Below are positions 1,020-55,486 of a stretch of DNA of 64,000 nucleotides, in pieces (the stretch's first letter is position 1; each line of letters starts with the position of its first letter). Below the pieces are notes generated by a model. The model searched no databases and was not told the origin of the DNA. It was given only the letters and a program-made list of their open reading frames with translations. The DNA is from Stegostoma tigrinum (lineage: Eukaryota). The translations under genes and the position numbers were made by a program. Where the stretch lies: the NCBI RefSeq assembly GCF_030684315.1, contig NC_081368.1, positions 49,615,734 to 49,679,733 on the forward strand, written 5' to 3'.

Positions 1020-1891
1020 GGTTTTGGAGTAGATTTGTCACTCGGGTTGTGGGTGTTGAGGTTGGTTGCCTTGCCGAGCTGGTTTGTTGTTCTGTAGACG
1101 TTTCGTTACCGTGCTGGGTAACATCCTCAGTGCAGCCTCTGATGAAGCATCGGTGTGTTTTCCCGCCTGGCTTTTGAACTCTGGGGTCCGTTGAGATGGG
1201 CTGCCTCACTTCCAGGTTTCCTCCATAGTGGAATGTACATGGGGTCGAGTTCAATGTGTTTATTTATAAACTGCTTCATGGAGTGCCATGCTTCCAGAAA
1301 TTCCCGTGCTTGTCTCTGCCTAGCCTGTCCCAGGATCTTGGTGTTGTCCCAGTCGAAGTCATGGTTCTCCTTATCCATGTGGATTGAGATGAGTAAGTAT
1401 TGGACTGCAAACAAAAGTACACCAAAAAGCCACACACAGAGACCAGGTATTGAACTTCAGTAGTAACCATTCCAGCACACACGAACGAAACTGCGTGCGA
1501 ACACTATTTAAAAGGGCAACAAAACACTGCAGCAACATGGAACTATGCCAAGAGGAGGAGGAATACCTCTTCCAGGTGTTCAAGGATAATGGATATTCAA
1601 AGAATTGGGTCAGGAGATGCCTACAGGAACAGCATCAGAAAGATTCTACACACCCAACACACTCATCACACTACCCTACATCAGGAACACATCAGAACTC
1701 ACCACAAGACTTCTACGACCACTGGACATCAGAGTGGCACACAAGCCCACGTCAACCCTACGACAAGTTCTTACCCAAACTAAAGACCCGGTCCCCACCA
1801 TGGACAGGGCCAATGTCATCTACAAGATCCCCTGCAGAGACTTGCGAGAAACAGTGCATCGGACAAACAGGAAGGAAGCCAACCAACCTCA
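1020..1891. mobile_element. Penelope-like element with internal inversion and 13-bp TSD
   Basis: Plus part 1396-1880 encodes ITLPYI..., ANVIYKIPCRD..(frameshift)..KQCIGQTGR (GIY-YIG-like). Minus part 1020-1395 encodes HDFDWDNTKILG...REFLEAWHS plus the terminal repeat. ACACTTATTTAAA occurs at 1007-1019 and 1892-1904. Confidence 0.85.
1097..1130 (-). ncRNA. Minimal hammerhead ribozyme motif in Penelope terminal repeat
   Basis: CTGAGGA-T-GTTACC(cagcac)GGTAAC-GAAAC-GTC: intact core and 6-bp stem II. Flanks ctgca/tacag approximate stem I. Confidence 0.75.
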
Positions 1892-5334: not shown

Positions 5335-5540
5335 GTTTTATAGCGAGTTTTGAGAAGATTTGTAGCTCAGGTTGAGGTTCTGGATGTTAGTTTGCTCGCT
5401 GAGCTGGAAGGTTGGTTTTCAGACGTTTCGTCACCATTCTAGGTAACATCATCAGTGAGCCTCCGACGAAGCGCTGGTGTTATGTCCCACTTTCTATTTA
5501 TCTGGTTAGGTTTCCTTGGGTTGGTGATGTCATTTCCAGT
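5335..5540 (-). mobile_element. Solo Penelope terminal repeat with hammerhead motif at 5422-5455
   Basis: Homologous to 1020-1200. Minus strand reads CTGATGA-T-GTTACC(tagaat)GGTGAC-GAAAC-GTC. Confidence 0.75.
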
Positions 5541-20459: not shown

Positions 20460-20632
20460 GAACATAGTGTGGAGGTGAATGAACACAGCAGGCCAGGCAG
20501 TATCAGGGAAGTAGGAAAGTTGATGTTTCGGGTCAGAACCCTTCTTCAGAAGTTCTGGCCAGGCCTGCTGTGTTCCTCCAGATCCACACTGTGTTATCTC
20601 TGACTCCAGCATCGGCAGTTCTTACAATCTCT
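20460..20632. repeat. Inverted pair of short Penelope-derived repeats with hammerhead-like motif (20522-20549, minus)
   Basis: gtgtggag..gaacacagcaggcc is followed by its reverse complement ggcctgctgtgttc..ccacac. Minus strand reads CTGAAGAAGGGTTCTGACCCGAAACATC. Confidence 0.7.
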
Positions 20633-28955: not shown

Positions 28956-29237
28956 TTCCAGTAGAACAGCAGGCAGTACCAGCTGAACCTGTGCTGGTGA
29001 CAGAATGGAGCAATCTCTGGAATGACAGCCCCAAACCTGATTCCTGAGGCAATGCACCAATTCCCATTCAGAGGGGACAAGCTGAGGCTTCCTCATCACG
29101 GACTGGACTGGCCGGGAGGGTTATGAGGCCTGGTTGCCGGGGGTAACAGTGCCCAGCCCCGTTGCTGAGATGGGGGGGGGGTGTTGTCAGGGTGACGGTC
29201 TCCGGCCCGGTTGCTAAGGGAAGGTTCGAGCGGGTAC

Positions 29238-29342
29238 CTCTCCGATACACAGTCCCATCACTTCCTCCTTTTCCGTGGACAAGGCGTGATTTAAACAGAC
29301 GAGGAACGCATCCGAGTCCAGATGAACCCCACACACCGCCAT
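29238..29342 (-). CDS. BRCC3: BRCC3 (BRCC36 Lys63-specific deubiquitinase) coding exon 1
   Basis: MAVCGVHLDSDAFLVCLNHALSTEKEEVMGLCIGE|gtaccc. The 8 exons join to a 786-nt CDS (261 aa). Confidence 0.97.
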
Positions 29343-29600
29343 GTCCGCTCAACGGTCGGGAGTGAAACCTAAAACCCGATTTAACCGAACCGGATCCTCT
29401 CCCCTTCCCGACAAAAACAGGGACAACAACCGGCGCCGGGCGACAAGCGCACGCGTCGCAACTAGGTTCCGGAAAATTCTCCGAGTTAAAATTGTGGCAG
29501 TGGCAGAGAGAGAGAAAATAAAATTACGAGTGATAAAAGCAGTTTTAAAATTTCGGGCAGAGGGAACTCGCAACGTGGGTATCGATTGTAACAGCGCAAC
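29343..29600. promoter_or_regulatory. CpG-rich bidirectional promoter between BRCC3 and CMC4
   Basis: Locally CpG-dense region between divergent genes. NRF1-like GCGCACGCG at 29447-29455 and palindromic ETS/GABP-like TTCCGGAA at 29467-29474. Probable non-coding CMC4 exon-1 donor CAG|gtaaag at 29692. Confidence 0.7.
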
Positions 29601-30486
29601 GCTGACAATGTCAATATTTAATTTTCATCAGTTCGTTGGCAGCTGAACCCGAGCAGTTTAGGAGGTGACACCGGCTCTCCTTTTCAGGACAGGTAAAGGT
29701 TTGAGGACAGGCTGGTCATTTTTGTGAGAAAATACATCCGCGTGGCTATTTTTATTATACTTAGTCCACACCAATTTGATTAGGTTCCTGAAAAAGCCGA
29801 ATTAAGTCTGTACCTTGAGCTTTAAGGAAGCTTTGTACAAATAAAATAGAACAAAACATTAATCTTGATTATTGCTGACCTGTAATCTGTAACATCTAAG
29901 AGACACCAAAATGGTTATCTTTAAAACAAATATTTGGGAGTAGAATTTCATCGATGGAAGGGATTGACCAAACATTGAGGCATTAGGCCTATCATAGATT
30001 TCAAAGTGCTTGTTCTAGGAATCTGAATTCAGAACAGAGTTGAAACTTTATGCCGCATTCAAAACTAATGGTAAACAGGGAAAGGATCAGAAGTTGGGAT
30101 TTAATATTTCTGTCTCTGATTTCTTTTCAACATTTGAAAAATTAATGTCTTTATCGGCACAAGACATTAAAGTATTTTAAGAAGTAAAATTGGGGTACCA
30201 ATTTTGAATTTAGAATGTCTTCAAAAACTTAGACAAGTTCCCTAAATAAAACAAGTTTATCCCTAGTTTGCTGACAATGAAAATGTATGGCTGTAATTAT
30301 TAATTCTGTTTTTGCTGCCTAGCATAAATTTCTGTATGTTCCCTTTTCTGTCAGTTGTTAAAATATTTAAATTAGCTGCACATAGGTTTTTAAAAATATC
30401 CCACTGCTTTGATGCCAGAGTTCCATTCCATGTAAAACTGCAAACAGAAAAGCCAATATATTCATTTCTTTTTCAGGAACATTGCT

Positions 30487-36200: not shown

Positions 36201-36449
36201 AACTTGCTTAGTACCACTTCCTAGTGATTGTAATTTCCTCCCTAAATTTCTCTCTCTCTCTCTCTCTCTCTTCCACAGCTATTACTGAAATGATTTTTGT
36301 ATTCTCCACCATGAAAACAGAATGCTTTTGCTTCTTGGGGATTGCAGAAACGACGTTTTGTCAAAGCTTTTCATCTTGCACTCATCAGCATATTTCATGG
36401 GAGGCATTTGTCTAGTGGTGTTATCATTAGACTATTAATCCAGAAAAAA

Positions 36450-37600
36450 AACACCAAAAGAATTGCGGATGCTGTAAATCAAAACCTGGAAAAGCCCAGG
36501 TCTAGCAGCATCTGTGAAGGCAAAAACAGAGTTAACGTTTAGGGTCCGGTTACCTTTCCTCAGAACTACAGTGGCTGGGAAAACGTCAGATTATATACAG
36601 AAAATAGGGAAGTGGGTGGAGTAGGGTGTAAACGATAGGATAGGGTCCAAAGAGAAAGACAGTTGGATAAAGGAGTTGCTAACGATCTGGCTGGGAGGGT
36701 GAATAGTTGTTAATGGGGACTGTTAGTGACTAACAACAGTGGGTGGTAATGGCAGGCTATGTGGTAAAAAGGCCTGGTGTGTGGGTTAGGGGATTGAGGC
36801 ATGGGAGAGTTTAAGCCCTAAAATTATTGAACTCATATTGAGTCCAGAGGGCTGTAGGGTCCCCAGGTGGAAAATGAGGTGTTGTTCCTTCAGTTTGCAT
36901 TGGGCTTCGCTGGGATACGTCAGCATGTCAGAGATGGAAATGTTGGCCAGGGAGCAGGGTGGTGCATTGAAGTGGCAAGCAACAGGCAGTTCAGGGTCTT
37001 TTTTGCAAGCAGAACTAGATGTTCTGCGAAGCAGTCGCCAAGTCTACGCTTTGTTATCCCAATGTAGAGGAGACCACATTGTGAGCAGCAAATGCAAAAG
37101 ACTAGATTCTGGGAAGTGCATGGTATGTTTGAGCTCCTGGCTACTGGGGAGGGAGGAGATAAATGGGCAGGTGTTACACCTTCACTGGTTACAGGGGCAG
37201 GTGCCATAGGTCTGTGGGTGAAGGGAGTGTGGACCAGAGTATCGCAGAAGGAACGGTCCCTGCAGAAGGCGGACAAGGGAGGGGAATGGGTCTGGTGGTG
37301 GAATCTCGCTGTAGCTGGTGGAAATGGCATCTGATGATCTTCTGGATGTAGACACTGATGGGATGGTAGGTAAGGAGAAGAGGAACCCAATTACTGTTGC
37401 TGGGAGGGAAGAAGTACAGAGATGACTCAGACCTGGTTGAGGGCCCTGTCAACAACGGAGCTGGGGAATCCTCAGTTGAGGAAGGTGGACATTTCAGAGG
37501 CTCCCTGTCGAAGTTGGCCTTATCTGAACATATGCAATGGAGACGAAGGAACTGAGAGAATGGGATGGAGTCTTTACAGGAAGTGGGGTGTGGATGAAAC
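36450..37600 (-). mobile_element. Penelope-like element (RT thumb, GIY-YIG endonuclease, terminal repeat)
   Basis: ORF 37189..37602 has SCKDSIPFSQFLRLHCICS. ORF 36920..37390 has CTSQNLVFCICCSQCGLLYIGITKRRLGDCFAEH. A decayed hammerhead motif lies at about 36534-36563. Confidence 0.88.
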
Positions 37601-37834
37601 AAGATCGGTTACGGTAGTGGATACAATGGCCTGATGTGCCATGGGGCTCATGGTTCAGGGGAAGGTAGGAGGAGGTAAATGAGAATTGTCTGTGAATTAT
37701 GCCTTCAATTTGAAGAAATTAATACGAAATGCAATGAAACACGTAAGATCTGGTAAAACCTTTTTTACGCACTCGGCCTCTGCAAGTTGGAAGGTCAGTA
37801 CGTTAAACTACAACAGCACCACCCTTAATCGGCA

Positions 37835-38150
37835 GGCATCCCAGGTAATGTTCTGGAGACCCAGATTTGAATCCCACCAAGGCAGATGGTGAAGTTTGAA
37901 TTCAGTAAAAATCTACAATTAAAAGTGTACTGATGACCATGAATCCATTGTTGATTGGCAGAGAAACTAATCTGACACACTAATGTCCTTTGGTAAGGAA
38001 ACTGCCATCCTCACCAGGTCTGGCCTACATATGACTCCAGACACACAGCAACATGGTTGATTCTTAAGAACCCTTTGGGCAATTAGGAATGGGCAATAAA
38101 TGCGGGTCTAGCCAGTGATACCCACATCCTGTCAATGAATAACAAAAAAA
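37835..38150 (+). mobile_element. SINE sharing its 3' tail with the LINE at 60807-61570
   Basis: B-box-like agatttgaatccc. The tail gggcaataaatgc..gccagtgatacccacatcc..aatgaataa also occurs at about 15695-15745 and 61520-61568. Confidence 0.6.
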
Positions 38151-42488: not shown

Positions 42489-42594
42489 CTGTGTGGGGTA
42501 GAAGGAAAGGACAGAATAATTAGCATTTACCATTTCACAGCAGTTGTGGGGGAACAAAGGATAACCTATGGCACGAAATTGTTTAAAAACCAAA

Positions 42595-42805
42595 AAGAAC
42601 TGCGAATGCTGTAAATCGGAAACAAAACTAAAGACTGCTGGAAAAGCTCAGCAGGCCCAGCAGCATCTGTGAAGAGAAATTAGGGTTAATGTTTCGGATC
42701 CACTCAAAGTTCTGAAAAAGGGTCACTAGACCCAAAATGTTAATTCTTGTTTTCTCTTCACAGATGCTGCCAGGCTGCTGAGCTTTTCCAGCGATCTCTA
42801 TTTTT
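42595..42805. repeat. Inverted pair of Penelope-derived short repeats (long hairpin) in FUNDC2 intron 4
   Basis: gctggaaaagctcagcag..gcagcatctgtgaagagaaa is mirrored by tttctcttcacagatgctgc..ctgctgagcttttccagc. Confidence 0.8.
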
Positions 42806-43102
42806 ATTACAGAATTGTCTGGTTTAAATTGTTCCTAAAACAGAATTTCACTATCACTGCAAACCATAAATCTAATAAGACAGTCTCTACAGCTGTTAAG
42901 ATGATACATTCAGTTTTATTGAATGTTCAATTTTTTTTGTCAGCAATCATGTCTAAATTATGAAATAAATCCTTCAAATATCATCCAACGGAAAAAATGT
43001 GCCAAGATAATAATATGTTTTCGTTACCATGACTTTTATTTGGTTAATAAAACTGAAAATAACTAATAACACAAGTACACCACCATGTCATCATTTTCCT
43101 AC

Positions 43103-44610: not shown

Positions 44611-45918
44611 AACTGGGATTGCACTCTTTAAAGCATTAATGATTAAGGGAGATCTGATAAAGATTTTCAAAATCATGAAGCGTTTTAATAAATAAGGAAC
44701 AACTTTTTAAAAGGCAGAATAGTCAGCAACCTCATGACAAAGATTCAAGGTAAATGAAAAGAACCAAGTGCAAGATTTCTGAAGAAGGATCCCAAACCGA
44801 AACATCAAGCTTTTCTGCTCCTCTGGTGCTGCTTGGCCCGCTGTGTTCATCCAGCTTCACATCGTGTTATCTCAAATGCAAGATTAGTTTTGTTTTAAAA
44901 AAAAGCAATGAATCGTCCTGATCTGGGATACACTGCCTGAAAGGGTCTTAACAAAGGAAACTGGGTAAATATTTGGAAGGGGAAACTTTGCAGAACAGCA
45001 AGATAGGGGACATGGAACTAAAACTAATCAGATAACTCTTTCGTACAGCTAATATTGAGATTATGGGCTAAATGGCCTTCCGTGTGTAAGAGACTATTGT
45101 TTTCAGTTTGCTGGCCTCTCCGTTTTCTGGTCCCTAGCAGTATCATTTTTTATCCTTGCTTCCGCACAAACACTACAGCATGCAAAAAAACAGTTCATCA
45201 TGCATGAAGAAAAATATGCAGTTTTTTTTTAGAAAGAACACTGGAATTGCTGTTGCCAATGAACAGCAACAAAACTGTAAGATCAAACACGAGAAATGAA
45301 ACAGAATACAGACACAAGGAGTAGTAATTTTGAATTAATGGGGTTAGGGAGGGGCAGTTGGACATTAGTTATAAACTCGCCAATATTTATATAGTCCCTT
45401 GTATATAGAGATTCAGTGCAACCCCCTTTGTATATGACAGTTGGGACATAAAACAAATGCAAAAACTCGTGAACTAATGAAATCAATAACTTGGATCATA
45501 CTTTAGCAATTAATCAGACTAACTTAGTTCATCTACTCAGGCAGCTCACTTGATTGCAAAATGCTCAAAGACAGCAAGGTGAACAAACGGCACACTTATC
45601 ATACACTACCAGCCAGGGATGAACAAATGAATGTATGATGCCTAACTGCTGCATTTTACATTTACATCTGCTGAATTATCAGCTCAAAATCAATTTAACA
45701 CATTCTAAAAAAACTATTAAAGTGTTAAGAATTTTGTTTACAGGATTAAATCCCTAAATTAATGAATACATACATAAACCCCAAAATGTGCATAGATTTG
45801 GTGCACAGATCGTGATGAGCCACCTCAGCCTTTAAGTCCCTCTCTACAGTTAAAGCTCTTCTCTCATTCTACCACTCAAAAAGACTTTACATTTCCCAAC
45901 TCAGTAACTGACTCTCAC

Positions 45919-48939: not shown

Positions 48940-49402
48940 CTGCGAAAATATATTCTGGGAAGTGCAGGTGAAGTGTTGCTTCACCTGGAAGATATGTTTG
49001 GGGCCCTTGGATACTGGGGAGGGAGGTGGTAAATGGGCAGGTGTTGCGTTCTGCTCGCAAAAAAGACCCTGAACTACCCACTGCCTGTTACTTTAACGCA
49101 CCACCTTGTTCCCTGGCCAACATGTCTGTTGGTCACTAATAGTCCATGTCAACAAATATTCACCCTCCCAGTCTGATCGTTATCAACTCTGTCTGTCCAA
49201 GTGCTCTTCTCTCTCTTTAGGCTGAATCCTGTCATTTACTCCCTACCCCATTTCCCTCCCCTTTTCTCTGCATACGTTTTCCAAGCTACCATTAGTTCTG
49301 AGGAAGGGTCACTGGACACGAAACATTAATTGTTTTTCCCTTCACAGATGCTGCCTGACCTGCTGAGCTTTTCCAACAACTTTGTTGTTGTTCCTGATTT
49401 AC
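48940..49402. mobile_element. Penelope-like fragment with inverted 5' part
   Basis: 48940-49045 is in the same orientation as 37090-37175, while 49046-49402 is the reverse complement of parts of 36480-37015. Hammerhead-like CTGAGGA..CGAAAC at about 49298-49325. Confidence 0.7.
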
Positions 49403-49404
49403 AG

Positions 49405-50289: not shown

Positions 50290-51060
50290 ATTTATAATAC
50301 AGAGCAGGCTAATTCCACTCACTGTCTGTACTAGTTCCCAAAAAAGCTACCCAGCTAGTCCTATCCTCCAGCCTTACATCCACAGCCGTCTAAACTCAAC
50401 ACTTTCAAAAATGACCTCTTAGAGATGACACCTCCACTGTTCTTCCAGGCAGCACATTACAAATCTGAACAACTCTCCGAGTAAAGAAGTTTCTCCTCAA
50501 CTTATTTCTAGCTGTCTTGCTGACAGACTTGAAATTGTGACCCCTAATTACTGACATACCAACTAGTGAGAACAGAATATATTTCTTTACCCTGTCAAAA
50601 TTTTTCACAATGTTGAAAACCTCAATAAGGCGACCTCAATCTCCTCTGCTCCAAGGAGAAGGCCAATTTTTCTTATCTTTCCTTGTATCTAAAATCCTTC
50701 ATTACTGGTTTCATTCCAGTAAATCTCCTTTGCTCCCCACAGCTTTATCATCCTTCCTTAAATAAGGTGCCCAGACTGTTCACAATACTCCAAATGTGGG
50801 CTCTCCTAAGATTTGCAGAGGTTTGGCATCATTTCTGTGCTTTTATACTCTTATGTCCCTATTTATAAATCTAAGGATCCTGTAAGCTTTCTTCACAACT
50901 GTTTCAACTTGCCTGGCCACCAAAAATGATGCACATGAATTCCGAGGTCCCTCTGCTTATGTGCTCCCCTCAAACTTGTCTAATTGAGCCTGTATTGTCT
51001 CCATCTTTTTTCTCCTACCTCACATTCCTCTGCATTGGAAATTCATCTGCCAAGTGTTTG
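50290..51060 (-). mobile_element. CR1 3' fragment
   Basis: ORF 50405..50608 reads RGHNFK..RRNFFTRRVVQICNVLP. Confidence 0.8.
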
Positions 51061-52090
51061 CTGTATAGTCTCTATATATTAATAAAGGACGTCACTGATA
51101 TTGTTGCAGTATATCAGGCAAAATAATATACACTGAAATTATGAGACAATCCTTATAAATTAATGAAGGATATCACTGTAGCATGCAAGGTCCTGAAGAA
51201 GGGTAATAGCTGAAACGTTGACTGCTCTTTTCCTCCAGATGCTGCCTCACTTGCTGTGTTCTTCCAGCCTGTTTGTCTACTTGGATTCCAGCATCTGCAG
51301 TTTTTTTGTCTCTGACTAAGTTTTACAATTGCAAAGATGTCCACTTTGAAGAAGTCCCCTGCCTCCCCTCACAGGTGAACTCAGTGACTCCCTTTCTCAC
51401 TGTTGCAGCCTCTTCAGCCCTTCAACTATTTGACCACACCATGAAACAAACCTGCTACTATATAGCCACGTGTCCTTCCTCAGCTCCTGTCTTGGCCACC
51501 ACTTCATCCCTCAAGGTGATCCTGAAGAAGGGTAATACTCAAAATGTTGACAGCTCCTTTCCTCCAGATACTGCCTGACTTGCTGTGTTCTTCCTGCCTC
51601 CTGTTTGTCTACAAGGATATCACTGACTTGATTACACTACACCATGCACTATAACAGACAATGACATTACTGTAGTGTTTTATATTAATGAAGGGCAATG
51701 ACATGATTATAGTATAGCAGACAAGTAATAGTGTTTATTAATAGACACCAATGTTGAGCGTGGTCCTCTCGGTCCTGGTATAGGGACTCTATCACTGTCC
51801 CACAAGGAAAATGATAAATTTTGATAAAATACATGGATAGATAAGCAGACAAAAAGGCATAATCACATTGGCTGCATGCCATATATTAACATTACTGTAG
51901 ATTTTATTAATAATGGACATCATTGGCATAATTACAGTAGCAGGCACTAATAAAGACTGACTTTACTGTATAGCCTTTTTATGTTAATATACATCATTGA
52001 CACTTGCTGTACATCAAACACGAATGTACACTGACATTATTACAAAACATTAACAATTATAATGGATATTGACATGACCGTACAGTTTTC
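51060..52090. repeat. Degenerate tandem repeat (roughly 75-bp unit) in FUNDC2 intron 1, interrupted by insertions
   Basis: Recurring blocks acattactgtag..tatattaat(g)aa(a)ggac/tatcactgac..attacagta..caggca at about 51065, 51155, 51665, 51890 and 51960. Confidence 0.55.
51179..51612 (+). mobile_element. Retrozyme-like insertion: two direct hammerhead-bearing repeats flanked by a 13-bp TSD
   Basis: AAGGATATCACTG at 51166-51178 and 51613-51625. Direct repeats at about 51186-51280 and 51512-51612, each with CTGAAGAAGGGTAATA..(G/A)AAA(C/T)GTTGAC. Confidence 0.7.
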
Positions 52091-52328
52091 ATCCAATAAT
52101 AAACGCCACCACTCAGCGATGGCACTGTTGTGGGCCCTCCCACCAGCCCTGATAACAGACAGCCTGCCCGTGTTAACCTTGACTTCACTCTTACGCTCTT
52201 ACCCTCCTTCCTCTCGATCGATACCTGCCGCCGCTGTCTAACGCTTCTCCCCAGACTCGCTCGCTCGCTCTTCCTCTCTCGCCCCCCTCGCTGCCTGCCT
52301 GACAAACATTAATTTCCAACACACTTAC

Positions 52329-52344
52329 CTTTCGCCTCCTCCAT
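52329..52344 (-). CDS. FUNDC2: FUNDC2 coding exon 1 (16 nt)
   Basis: aggATGGAGGAGGCGAAAG|gtaagt = MEEAK, phase 1, matching exon 2. It sits in a CpG-rich region. The full CDS is 456 nt (151 aa). FFLLQ, ANHTGYI, QLKI.KS and FVKKN plus synteny favour FUNDC2 over FUNDC1. Confidence 0.85.
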
Positions 52345-52470
52345 CCTGCCCTGTCCTCTCACCCGGAAACAGTCCTTCGAAGCCAGCGGAAATGATGTAA
52401 CTGAGTGCACGTGCTTGGTGCGATGTCAATCATTCAAGTGCAGGCAGTGGTGCAACGGGCGTTGATTGTA
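52345..52470 (-). promoter_or_regulatory. FUNDC2 proximal promoter
   Basis: CCGGAA at about 52363, ETS-CRE/CARE-like CGGAAATGATGTAA at 52387-52400, E-box CACGTG at 52408-52413, with local CpG enrichment. Confidence 0.55.
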
Positions 52471-53640
52471 AATGATCACTTGTAGTACATTTTGGTTAAA
52501 GAAGAATATAATTTGTAAGTGTGTGCTCTGTTAATAAGTACTGCAAGATATACATACAATTTTCTTGATTCAAATTAAGATCTGGTGTTAGTTCTACCTT
52601 AATAAGACCATAAGACATAGGAGCAGCCCCTCTCGCCCCTGCCTCCTTCACCTGTCCGTCTTTTCTCCCACCAACCCCCATCCCAACTCCCTACCCACTC
52701 TCGCCTTTACTGGTTTCGTCCCCCTCCTCGACCTGCCCTTCTTCTCTGCACCAATCTGCTGGTTTATCCACCTGCTGTCATCACGTCCCCGCTCTCTCTC
52801 GATTTATTTGAGGGTCTCTTTCCCCTCCCCGATTTCTGGAGACGGGTCTAGACCTGAAACGTCAGCTTTCCTGCTCCTTTGATGCTGCCTGGCCTACTGT
52901 GTTCATCCAGCTCCACACCTTGCTACCTCAGTCTTAAATGTACTCAAACATCTGGCCTCCACAGCCTTCTGTTAGAGCAGTTGCGGTGGACCTGCTCCTC
53001 TTCTGAACAATAAACAAATTGCATACAGTAGGGAAAGTGGCCATTCAACTTTAGTGCTGAAAACTGTAATTATGTGCATTACTTACACATCAATATCTGA
53101 TAAACCTCAAAATATTAATGTACGTCATGAACATCTTGATGATCACGCGGTCAAGGGTTACAGGGAGAAAGTGGGAGAATAGCATTGAGGAATTTTATCA
53201 GCCATGATTTAACAGCGGACCAAACTAGTTGGGCTGAATGGCCTAATTTCTGCTCCTATGTCTTATAGTCTTCTGGTCTTAACTCTCCAAGGGCATGTCC
53301 ACTCTACCCACTCCCTCTTCTCTTTCACTGAAAATTGTTAATTTTAATTGTTAGGCTTTAGCATATAGCTGATCACATTTTGAAAATAGATGGTGCTCAA
53401 CCAATGTGATTATACCTCTTTTTGTCTGCTTATCTAGCCATTTTAGCAAAACTGATCGCTTCCTTGTGGGACAGTGGTAGAGTCCCTATCCCTGGACCGA
53501 GAGGACCAGGATCAAGTTCCCTGACCTGCTCCAGAAGTGTGTAATAATGTCTGAACAGATTGATTAAGAGAAAAAAGTCATGATCTGCATTAAGCAGACT
53601 AACCGTCCAATGCATTCAAGAACCTCGTGAGCACAAAAAA

Positions 53641-55486
53641 ACGCAATGGATCTTTCAGTGCAATAGTATTCCAACATTATAAATATTATAAATACAACGG
53701 TGGACAGCAAATGTCCTCAAGGGTGAGGAAACATTTAATGTCAAATTTCACAGTGCCTCAGTACCAATACTAACTGAACCAGCTCAGTACTGCAGCAGGT
53801 GGTCATGGTACTATTAAAAGAGAAAAAGCCAATTGACCATCCTCAGTAAATGTTGTGTTGTGTAATATTATCAATTGATCCTCAAGACAAAATCTTCTTC
53901 ATACTGAGTACACGTGCCATCAAGTTATATAGCATGACCACCATGCTAAATGAGATGGTTTCAGAACAGATTTAACAGTTCAAAACCAGCATTAGGACTG
54001 GTAGAAGCAGCAGATTTGTATTTACCACAATCTTAAGTTACATCATACCCCTCATTTTTGCTATTACCATTAAGCCAAGGAACAAAGCCTTGATGAAGAA
54101 AGCATGCTGGACAGCATACCAGGAGAGGCTCCGTGAGTACCAAAAAATAAGGTGCCAGCCTGCTGATGCTACAGCCTTACAACATAGCAAAAGACACAGG
54201 CTAAAAAGTGAGCTAAATGATTCTATAATCAATTGTTCAGATTCAAACTCTGCAGTACTGCCACTTGTAGTCGTCAACAGTGATGAACAATTGAACAACT
54301 AACTGGAGAAGTGTCCATAACGCCACAAACTTCATGATGGCACAGTCCAGCATTCAATGCAAAAGATAAGGTTGAAAGGTTTGCAACCGACTTCATTTAG
54401 ACATATAAATTCAATGGCCTATATAAGCCCTCTCCTAAGGTCCCTAGCCTCACAGTTACTGGAATTCAGATGAGTAGGCACATTCCATGTGATATCAAGA
54501 GATGGCTAGATAAAACAAAGGTTATGAGTACTGACAGCATATAGACTTGTGCTCCACATCTAATCATGCTTCTGGCCATCTTGCTCCTCTATAGCTACAA
54601 GTATGGTTTATACTACGCAATCAAAAACTACCTAGGTATGTTCTGCCTCCAAAAATGTAGCACATGTCTAGTCTGACCAGTTAACACCCCATCAGTCTAC
54701 TTTCAGTCATTACCAGATTTATGGAATGTGTCATCAAATGAAAGTGCAAAGCTGCACCTACTCATCAAAAACTACCTAACATACGCTGCTGTAGGGAGCT
54801 TTACAGCTCTAGATCTCAAATAGCTGAAAGAGCTGAATTCCAGAGGTGACATTGAAGTAAAAAAAAACCAAAAACTGCAGATGCTGGAAATTGGAAACAA
54901 AATCAGAAATTGCTGGAAAAAACTCAGCATGTCAGGCAGCACTTGTGAAGAGAAAGCAAAGCTAGTATTTCAGGTCTAGTAACCCTTCTTCAGAACATTG
55001 TGATATTGAAGTAATTGTCTTTGACAAGATGACAGCAAATAACCAAATTTGATGTCAAGAAATATTAGGAAAATTGCGAAGAAGGATTCCAACCCAAAAC
55101 GTCAACTCTCCTGCTTCTCTGATGCTGCCTGTCCTGCTGTGTTCCTCCAGTCCCACATTGAGTTATCCATTAGTAAAACTGAACTGGAAATGGCCTGACA
55201 GTGCAGCATTGTCTACTATTTCCTCTTTTCATTTTGGGAATGTGAGTATCAGTGGCAAGGTACATCATGTATAGTTAAACAAAAGTAAAATACTGTGGAT
55301 GCTGAAACAAAAGTTCTGCCCTCAGTACTGAAAAACAATCATACTAGACATATTACGGTAATACATATTATGAAAATTGACATTAAATGTTTCCTCACCC
55401 TTCAGGACATTTGGTATTCTTGTGGTCCATCATGGTGTTTATAATATTTATAAAGGAATACTATTGCACAGAAGGGTCCATGGTGT
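53641..55486. repeat. Inverted repeat pair (about 110 bp arms) enclosing about 1.6 kb
   Basis: 53641-53750 matches the reverse complement of 55371-55486 (gtgcaatagtattcc, ttataaatattataaa, caaatgtcct.aagggtgaggaaacatttaatgtcaa). Confidence 0.85.

Follow-up and report, generated by a model that had tools for sequence, protein, structure and literature searches.

A hammerhead-bearing insertion in shark DNA is likely an old, inert copying by-product of a Penelope-like element

Introduction

Neptune-type Penelope-like elements (PLEs), which encode an endonuclease and carry minimal hammerhead ribozymes, have been described with a pseudo-LTR (pLTR), an open reading frame (ORF) and a second pLTR in that order (PMC4209133; Craig et al. 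2021, PMC8557442). Further described features are a minimal type I hammerhead with an extra nucleotide after A9 and a palindromic ACGU, a 3' end that occurs in a short and a long form about 33 nt apart, target-site duplications (TSDs) in AT-rich DNA, and proteins that combine reverse transcriptase (RT) and GIY-YIG domains with a CX2-5CxxC-like linker. The insertion analysed here, which lies in a 64-kb stretch of shark DNA (the window), shares the order of parts, the hammerhead type, the two 3' ends and the AT-rich TSD, and the N-terminus of its ORF is homologous to such proteins. It differs from these elements in that no ORF is left past codon 62, the repeats start just 5' of the hammerhead core and the hammerheads are damaged.

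Metazoan non-LTR retrozymes (Cervera & De la Pena 2020, PMC7229834; Li, Clavereau & Pollet 2026 preprint) resemble the insertion in unit size, GC content and the presence of one hammerhead per repeat, as well as in the absence of coding capacity, a TSD over 4 bp and a link to PLEs. In contrast to these retrozymes, the insertion has a PLE ORF remnant as its spacer, comprises only 1.3 units, has one hammerhead without G12, would yield a weakly self-paired monomer and gave no sign of a family sharing its junction among the matches listed. The preprint 10.64898/2026.07.22.740005 describes non-LTR retrozymes with a mean consensus of 363 bp in one chondrichthyan genome, argues for their PLE origin and reports cleavage of one of nine tested Xenopus dimers; the main text of PMC7229834 contains neither 'shark' nor 'cartilaginous'. 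Short derivatives that keep the pLTRs of an autonomous family are likewise described for Adineta vaga (Pen2, Pen5 and Pen6; PMC3846280) and among non-autonomous Chlamys elements such as MRC1 (PMC8557442). Those families resemble their parents mainly at the 3' end and amplify, whereas the insertion described here keeps the 5' start of the ORF and was seen once. Our literature search returned no description of this shark element, which Repbase, Dfam or the preprint supplement may list. As far as the available sources go, the insertion is a PLE derivative of an ordinary kind, and both the presence in a cartilaginous fish of non-LTR retrozymes and their PLE origin have already been reported (10.64898/2026.07.22.740005).

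Results

The insertion comprises 434 bases and consists of a pLTR, a 23-nt 5' UTR, codons 1-62 of an ORF, two further bases and a second pLTR (Table 1). It is bounded by the 13-bp sequence AAGGATATCACTG, which is identical at 51166-51178 and 51613-51625 and whose match extends on neither side. Only four maximal exact repeats of at least 13 nt lie 300-600 bp apart in the 64-kb window, namely this pair and three that fall within repeat 1 and repeat 2. Since the flanks belong to a decayed AT-rich repeat with a period of about 81 bp and contain a look-alike of the 13-mer with two mismatches at 51085, the chance level of such a pair is higher here than elsewhere. We accepted the pair as a true TSD because, once the insert and one copy of the TSD are taken out, the resulting empty site shows a self-alignment spanning the junction (67% over 125 columns, E 6e-11). 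This bears out the initial annotation, which had been made from the sequence alone and had claimed exact 13-bp TSDs around about 1.3 tandem units (434/329 = 1.3). The 12 nt between the left TSD and repeat 1 partially fit, when compared by eye, the loose-end consensus found upstream of relatives, and also partially fit 51500-51519 at the core's end, in an alignment that needs three gaps (two being 3 nt long) and has CAT and CAAGGT in common; by eye, the relatives' upstream consensus fits about as well as the core end and needs fewer gaps.

Table 1. Features of the insertion, its target and a decayed PLE in the same window.
Feature	Coordinates	Strand	Basis or remark
Left target-site duplication, 13 bp	51166..51178	+	Exact match to 51613-51625; empty site restores the ~81-bp flanking repeat
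12-nt 5' junction	51179..51190	+	Ambiguous origin: decayed upstream-UTR end of the family, ORF-remnant end, or untemplated
Repeat 1: PLE pseudo-LTR, from just 5' of the hammerhead through the long-form end	51191..51313	+	Relatives end at 51307/51313
Short 5' UTR, pseudo-LTR to ATG	51314..51336	+	Between the end of pLTR similarity and the ATG aligned to P0334 residue 1
Codons 1-62 of PLE ORF	51337..51517	+	Three frameshifts near 51373, 51407 and 51456; conserved N-terminal motif (51464-51517) at the end
Two nucleotides between ORF and pLTR	51518..51519	+	ORF similarity stops at 51517; repeat similarity from 51520
Repeat 2: pseudo-LTR, short form without the last ~33 nt	51520..51612	+	Relatives run past 51612 with sequence found in repeat 1
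Right target-site duplication	51613..51625	+	Exact match to left copy
Target: decayed AT-rich repeat (period ~81 bp) interrupted by the insertion	51057..52090	.	Empty-site self-alignment, autocorrelation; families D1, D3, D4, D6
Decayed PLE: ORF remnants including GIY-YIG region, ~290-nt spacer/3' UTR, related hammerhead pLTR (core 36563)	36447..37900	-	ORF and repeat similarity

The two repeats, compared over 51191-51280 and 51520-51612, are identical in 80 of 93 columns, with 10 substitutions among the 90 aligned letters and one 3-nt gap. They are spaced 329 bp apart and have the same starting nucleotide, which lies two bases ahead of C3. By BLAST they are 85-86% alike, compared with at most 76% over comparable lengths for other copies in the window. 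Judged by their sequence, both fit the minimal type I hammerhead motif of PLE pLTRs, with its core, an extra nucleotide after A9, a short stem II and a palindrome replacing helix III, which we recognised from the published description of the minimal hammerhead (Cervera & De la Pena 2014, PMC4209133). The repeat 1 core (51193-51219) has every core letter, an extra A after A9 and the palindromic ACGU, with a cut predicted after 51219; its 4-bp stem II contains a G-G mismatch and a G-U replacing the closing G-C. In repeat 2 (core 51522-51548), G12 is changed to A (51541) and C15.2 to U (51545), and stem I is 2 bp long. G10.1-C11.1 is present in repeat 2, and the core and palindrome are present in repeat 1. 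G12 is essential to the hammerhead. Cores at 51193 and 51522, 329 bp apart and both mutated, had been proposed before, and we agree on position, spacing and damage, stem II being broken in repeat 1 and G12 absent from repeat 2; of the GTC/GAC stem I that had been proposed alongside, repeat 1 can form 3 bp plus a G-U, whereas repeat 2 forms only 2 bp.

Three of the hammerhead lesions fall at CG sites in the majority sequence of 13 aligned copies from the window, which is consistent with decay of methylated CpG. Across these 13 copies, 80.8% of stem cells can pair, compared with at most 47.8% when the stems are slid along the alignment, and stem covariation in the same 13 copies did not exceed shuffles (156/500). 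An Rfam scan at E up to 10 gave eight weak matches with no hammerhead among them. None of the single-strand folds of four pieces beat its shuffles, and the hammerhead fold was not the minimum.

On similarity to known proteins, the spacer between the repeats is the frameshifted start of a PLE ORF, made up of 5' UTR and codons 1-62. Residues 1-62 of P0334 (XP_072440417.1, a PLE protein of Chiloscyllium punctatum) align to 51337-51517 across three frameshifts with 33 of 59 positions identical and 44 positive, and the alignment score of 125 compares with maxima of 40 for 62 window controls and 37 for 30 shuffles. The Chiloscyllium punctatum match is consistent with a shark origin. P0334, which lacks the endonuclease end, is a relative, with 56% identity over the remnant. 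Independently of P0334, a profile built from the N-termini of 85 long PLE proteins gave the core the top rank of 1710 six-frame chunks (E 5e-4, from two overlapping chunks, with the next at 1.5), and the core reached a PSSM score of 40 bits, compared with at most 23.8 for the 79 window controls and 20.9 for the 40 shuffles. In 59 of 91 long proteins, the N-terminal motif is preceded by at least 40 residues, its median position being 45. Pieces found on the core by tblastn at E up to 10 came from 62 of 85 proteins (at least 780 aa); they are singly weak matches and, with the exception of P0149 and P0154, all lie at the motif ending at 51517. Within the 64-kb window, BLAST with the core as query found no second copy, none of 208 candidates scored in a first protein search with a decayed window PLE fragment, and Pfam gave no relevant match in the six frames of the window.

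A search with a window PLE fragment returned 380 relatives at E up to 0.001. Among the 150 of these 380 that were listed, the four longest all have GIY-YIG, and three of the four have RVT_1. Among seven relatives checked, DKG or DKGS is present in all and a CX2-5CxxC-like linker in four. These linker and DKG motifs, which come from relatives and of which the linker also occurs in Nematis, would point to a Neptune-type parent (PMC8557442). The insertion itself, with its 62 codons and three frameshifts, contains no intact RT and endonuclease ORF and is thus not an autonomous PLE.

By their similarity and placement, the repeats are the hammerhead-bearing pLTR of a very abundant PLE family, of which 11 related copies could be aligned elsewhere in the 64-kb window. 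In the decayed minus-strand PLE (Table 1), the pLTR stands after the GIY-YIG ORF remnant, as at a PLE 3' end, and so shows where such repeats are usually located. The relatives end near 51307-51313, about 33 nt past the end of repeat 2. The gap between short and long pLTR forms matches the optional tail of 30-40 bp described for PLEs (PMC8557442, PMC11167929). Among 12 motif-scan hits, three solo pLTR copies, at 44779 (+), 54993 (-) and 55859 (-), had TSD scores exceeding those of all 40 random positions, and the other nine did not. These three are about 100-135 bp long with TSDs of 12-15 bp that end 1-9 nt before the hammerhead core, which indicates that a stop immediately 5' of the hammerhead is frequent in the superfamily and that TSDs of 12-15 bp are ordinary for it. 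The shared 5' stop, which is distinct from the ribozyme cut site, may mark the start of the transcript.

Several other PLE-related features were observed in the window. In the decayed PLE at 36447-37900, most of the RT that would lie between the DKG region and the thumb also appears to be missing, and a decayed PLE 3' part with GIY-YIG remnant, 3' UTR and hammerhead pLTR lies at 49048-49404 (+). Inverted or closely paired pLTR pieces occur at 42585-42816, 20461-20631 and 54863-55167; a head-to-head arrangement of pLTRs is known for PLEs. A second hammerhead family with a longer stem II is present at 1023-1164 (-) and 5348-5488 (-), with cores at 1130 and 5455, and the ORF remnants at 1127-1941 that adjoin it look like another PLE clade.

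The abundance of each part was gauged by aligning contigs of public sequencing runs to a 1.2-kb stretch at 80% likeness, at which copies less than 80% alike are invisible. In runs X1, X3 and X7, 7,460, 7,328 and 7,017 contigs matched, mostly on the repeats. Summed depth, which is not a copy number, reached 106,455 on the repeats in X1 compared with 4.6-9.7 in the unique flank, and was 79-190 in the core bins, or 8-20 times flank depth. Position 51473 in the core was covered by 16 (X1), 18 (X3) and 19 (X7) contigs. The core had previously been regarded as unique and non-coding. With its origin as the start of a PLE ORF and 16-19 core contigs per large run, it is not unique, nor is it non-coding in origin. 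The contig that crosses from core to hammerhead (51287-51549) had a depth of 9.8, against 9.69 in the right flank, and of the eight pieces listed for X1 only the three belonging to the locus itself exceeded about 124 bp. Among the matches listed, and at 80% likeness, this single-copy depth argues against a large family sharing the junction, although it is not decisive. Loose contig ends before 51190 and before 51520 have a common C-rich consensus (agreement 0.39-0.51) that is unlike the core and resembles a 3' UTR, so the relatives usually carry different upstream sequence. The modest multi-copy signal of the core is what the 5' ends of parent ORFs would give.

In the contig alignments we also found joints that go back about 331 positions (51610-51612 to about 51280). 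These were considered as circle junctions and are read instead as long-form pLTR copies aligned across both repeats, because repeat 2 of the reference stops short. Run X5 (46 Mb of contigs) contains an exact contig, 51398-51633, with the 3' half of the core, repeat 2, the right TSD and 8 nt of flank, and has little other coverage of the insertion flanks; we do not take this contig as evidence of either expression or a circle. The search of sequencing runs listed no RNA dataset as containing the insertion. The left junction also occurs in a second organism (B), with 15 differences in 330, as do the right junction, with 31 in 412, and a piece of the core, with 9 differences and 12 gap letters. 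With both junctions present there, the insertion predates the split and is old.

With 329 nt, 46.8% GC and a 13-bp TSD, the putative monomer lies within the limits given for retrozymes (170-400 nt, below 50% GC, TSD over 4 bp). Folded as a putative circle it reaches -56.5 kcal/mol with 52% of bases paired, compared with -62.2 +/- 4.3 kcal/mol for 60 dinucleotide shuffles (z +1.32); strong self-pairing may have been lost as the copy decayed. Two or more consecutive units with complete hammerheads, by which the 2026 preprint defines an active element, were not found at this locus, which has 1.3 units and a repeat 2 without G12.

Discussion

We think it probable that the locus represents one old insertion in which two PLE pLTR pieces surround the first 62 codons of a PLE ORF, likely produced by a template jump while the parent element was being reverse-transcribed and likely inert today. 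Under this model, the PLE endonuclease would nick an AT-rich target and the RT would prime inside the pLTR at its short ('tail-less') end, at 51612. It would copy 93 nt and reach the site immediately 5' of the hammerhead core at which the superfamily's short copies commonly stop, and would then jump to a PLE RNA at about nucleotide 181 of the ORF, from where it would copy the ORF start, the 5' UTR and the pLTR to the same stopping point. Second-strand synthesis would leave the TSD, and the copy would subsequently decay. If the two repeats folded as a dimer, repeat 2 would be predicted to have a dead core and at most one of the two cuts could be made; because G12 is missing from repeat 2, no 329-nt monomer or circle would be released, as judged from general hammerhead chemistry.

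The behaviour of an anole PLE in vitro offers a point of reference for such copying (Frangieh 2024, PMC11167929). Its reverse transcription starts inside the RNA, its targets are AT-rich, the first 172 nt of the ORF are needed in the template (PAc), and its hammerhead cleavage, which the protein assists, is dispensable for insertion in vitro. From this behaviour we infer that two rounds of copying probably took place in one event. The anole PLE belongs to the Poseidon clade and its hammerhead overlaps the ORF start, unlike the arrangement here (PMC11167929), and the parallel between its 172 nt and the 181 nt of ORF retained in the insertion is suggestive only.

Much the same anatomy would be expected if a full-length PLE (pLTR-ORF-pLTR) had inserted with its TSD and had then lost about 2.5-3 kb by genomic deletion, an equally inert outcome that we regard as unlikely. 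Internally deleted Penelope copies with microhomology-mediated deletions have been described (PMC3846280), as has a copy with a 2.84-kb internal deletion (PMC8557442). A random deletion, however, gives no reason for a right breakpoint at the exact start nucleotide of repeat 1, near the starts of the solo copies, and it would have to be old, as the second organism appears to carry the core too. That the parts came together in two or three separate events, with a solo pLTR inserting into or next to a PLE 5' fragment and the 13-mer pair supplied by the repetitive flank, is very improbable. The 64 kb are densely populated with solo pLTR copies (11 others) and the flank does contain TSD look-alikes, but the exact TSD encloses the whole unit, the empty site is coherent, no inner TSD surrounds repeat 2 (the best score, 5, falls in the range of random positions), and repeats 1 and 2 are more alike (85-86%) than other window copies (at most 76%).

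Somewhat more doubtful than the deletion is the proposal that the locus is a decayed member of a non-autonomous, PLE-derived family, whose 329-nt unit was cut out by dimeric hammerheads, closed into a circle and then copied 1.3 times by a PLE enzyme. Its size and 47% GC fit the range of 170-400 nt and under 50% GC given for metazoan retrozymes (PMC7229834), its TSD is longer than 4 bp, and retrozymes averaging 363 bp are reported from one cartilaginous fish (preprint 10.64898/2026.07.22.740005). The core bins at 8-20 times flank depth would suit a family, and the 181 nt of retained ORF would again correspond to the 172 nt needed by the PAc template (PMC11167929). The 12-nt 5' junction partly matches the core end, and its CAT and CAAGGT would fit a template that contained the junction twice. 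Against this stand the single-copy depth of the junction, the different sequence that precedes the relatives and the lack of a long junction-spanning relative among the matches listed. Self-pairing of the monomer is not above that of shuffles (-56.5 against -62.2 +/- 4.3 kcal/mol), there are only 1.3 units and no array, the hammerheads are of the minimal PLE type that is reported to cut weakly (PMC4209133), and the multi-copy core signal is expected from the 5' ends of parent ORFs in any case.

The initial annotation had proposed a shark family that produces circular RNA. A non-autonomous, TSD-flanked and PLE-linked element with two mutated minimal hammerheads stands, but a producing family is not supported by a junction seen, at 80% likeness, only at single-copy depth and by relatives mostly preceded by C-rich sequence. 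It had also held that a core which was single-copy or part of an autonomous element's UTR would speak against such a family, and this is largely what we found, the core being assigned to the 5' UTR and codons 1-62 of a PLE ORF. Rather than a ribozyme circle that spreads itself, the insertion is likely a by-product of copying that is old and inert. In a further version, for which we see only a small chance, the 329-nt unit would have been a minimal Penelope RNA that can be mobilised in trans, comprising a hammerhead, RT start sites, a 5' UTR and about 180 nt of ORF that bind the PLE protein; it would once have formed a small family, and the locus would be a fossil of the birth of a retrozyme in which the ORF start was kept as a protein-binding signal. 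If the junction were a family trait, it would lay out a direct route from PLE to retrozyme at sequence level and suggest the ORF start as the signal recognised in trans.

A single dead copy matters little in itself, yet under the template-jump model it records PLE mechanics in the shared start 5' of the hammerhead, the short 3' end, the jump at the ORF start and the 13-bp TSD. A match to two hammerheads plus a spacer can evidently be a gutted PLE, which bears on automated counts of retrozymes. The insertion could also be used as a presence/absence marker common to two organisms.

The surroundings of the insertion contain two CpG-rich regions. At 52000-52500 (-), observed/expected CpG is about 0.9-1.0, compared with 0.26 window-wide, and in this patch ATG GAG GAG GCG AAA G runs into a consensus splice donor at about 52331. 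A minus-strand gene likely has its first exon here, which would place the insertion antisense in intron 1, about 700 bp from the donor. A second CpG-rich island, likely a promoter, lies at 29000-29650.
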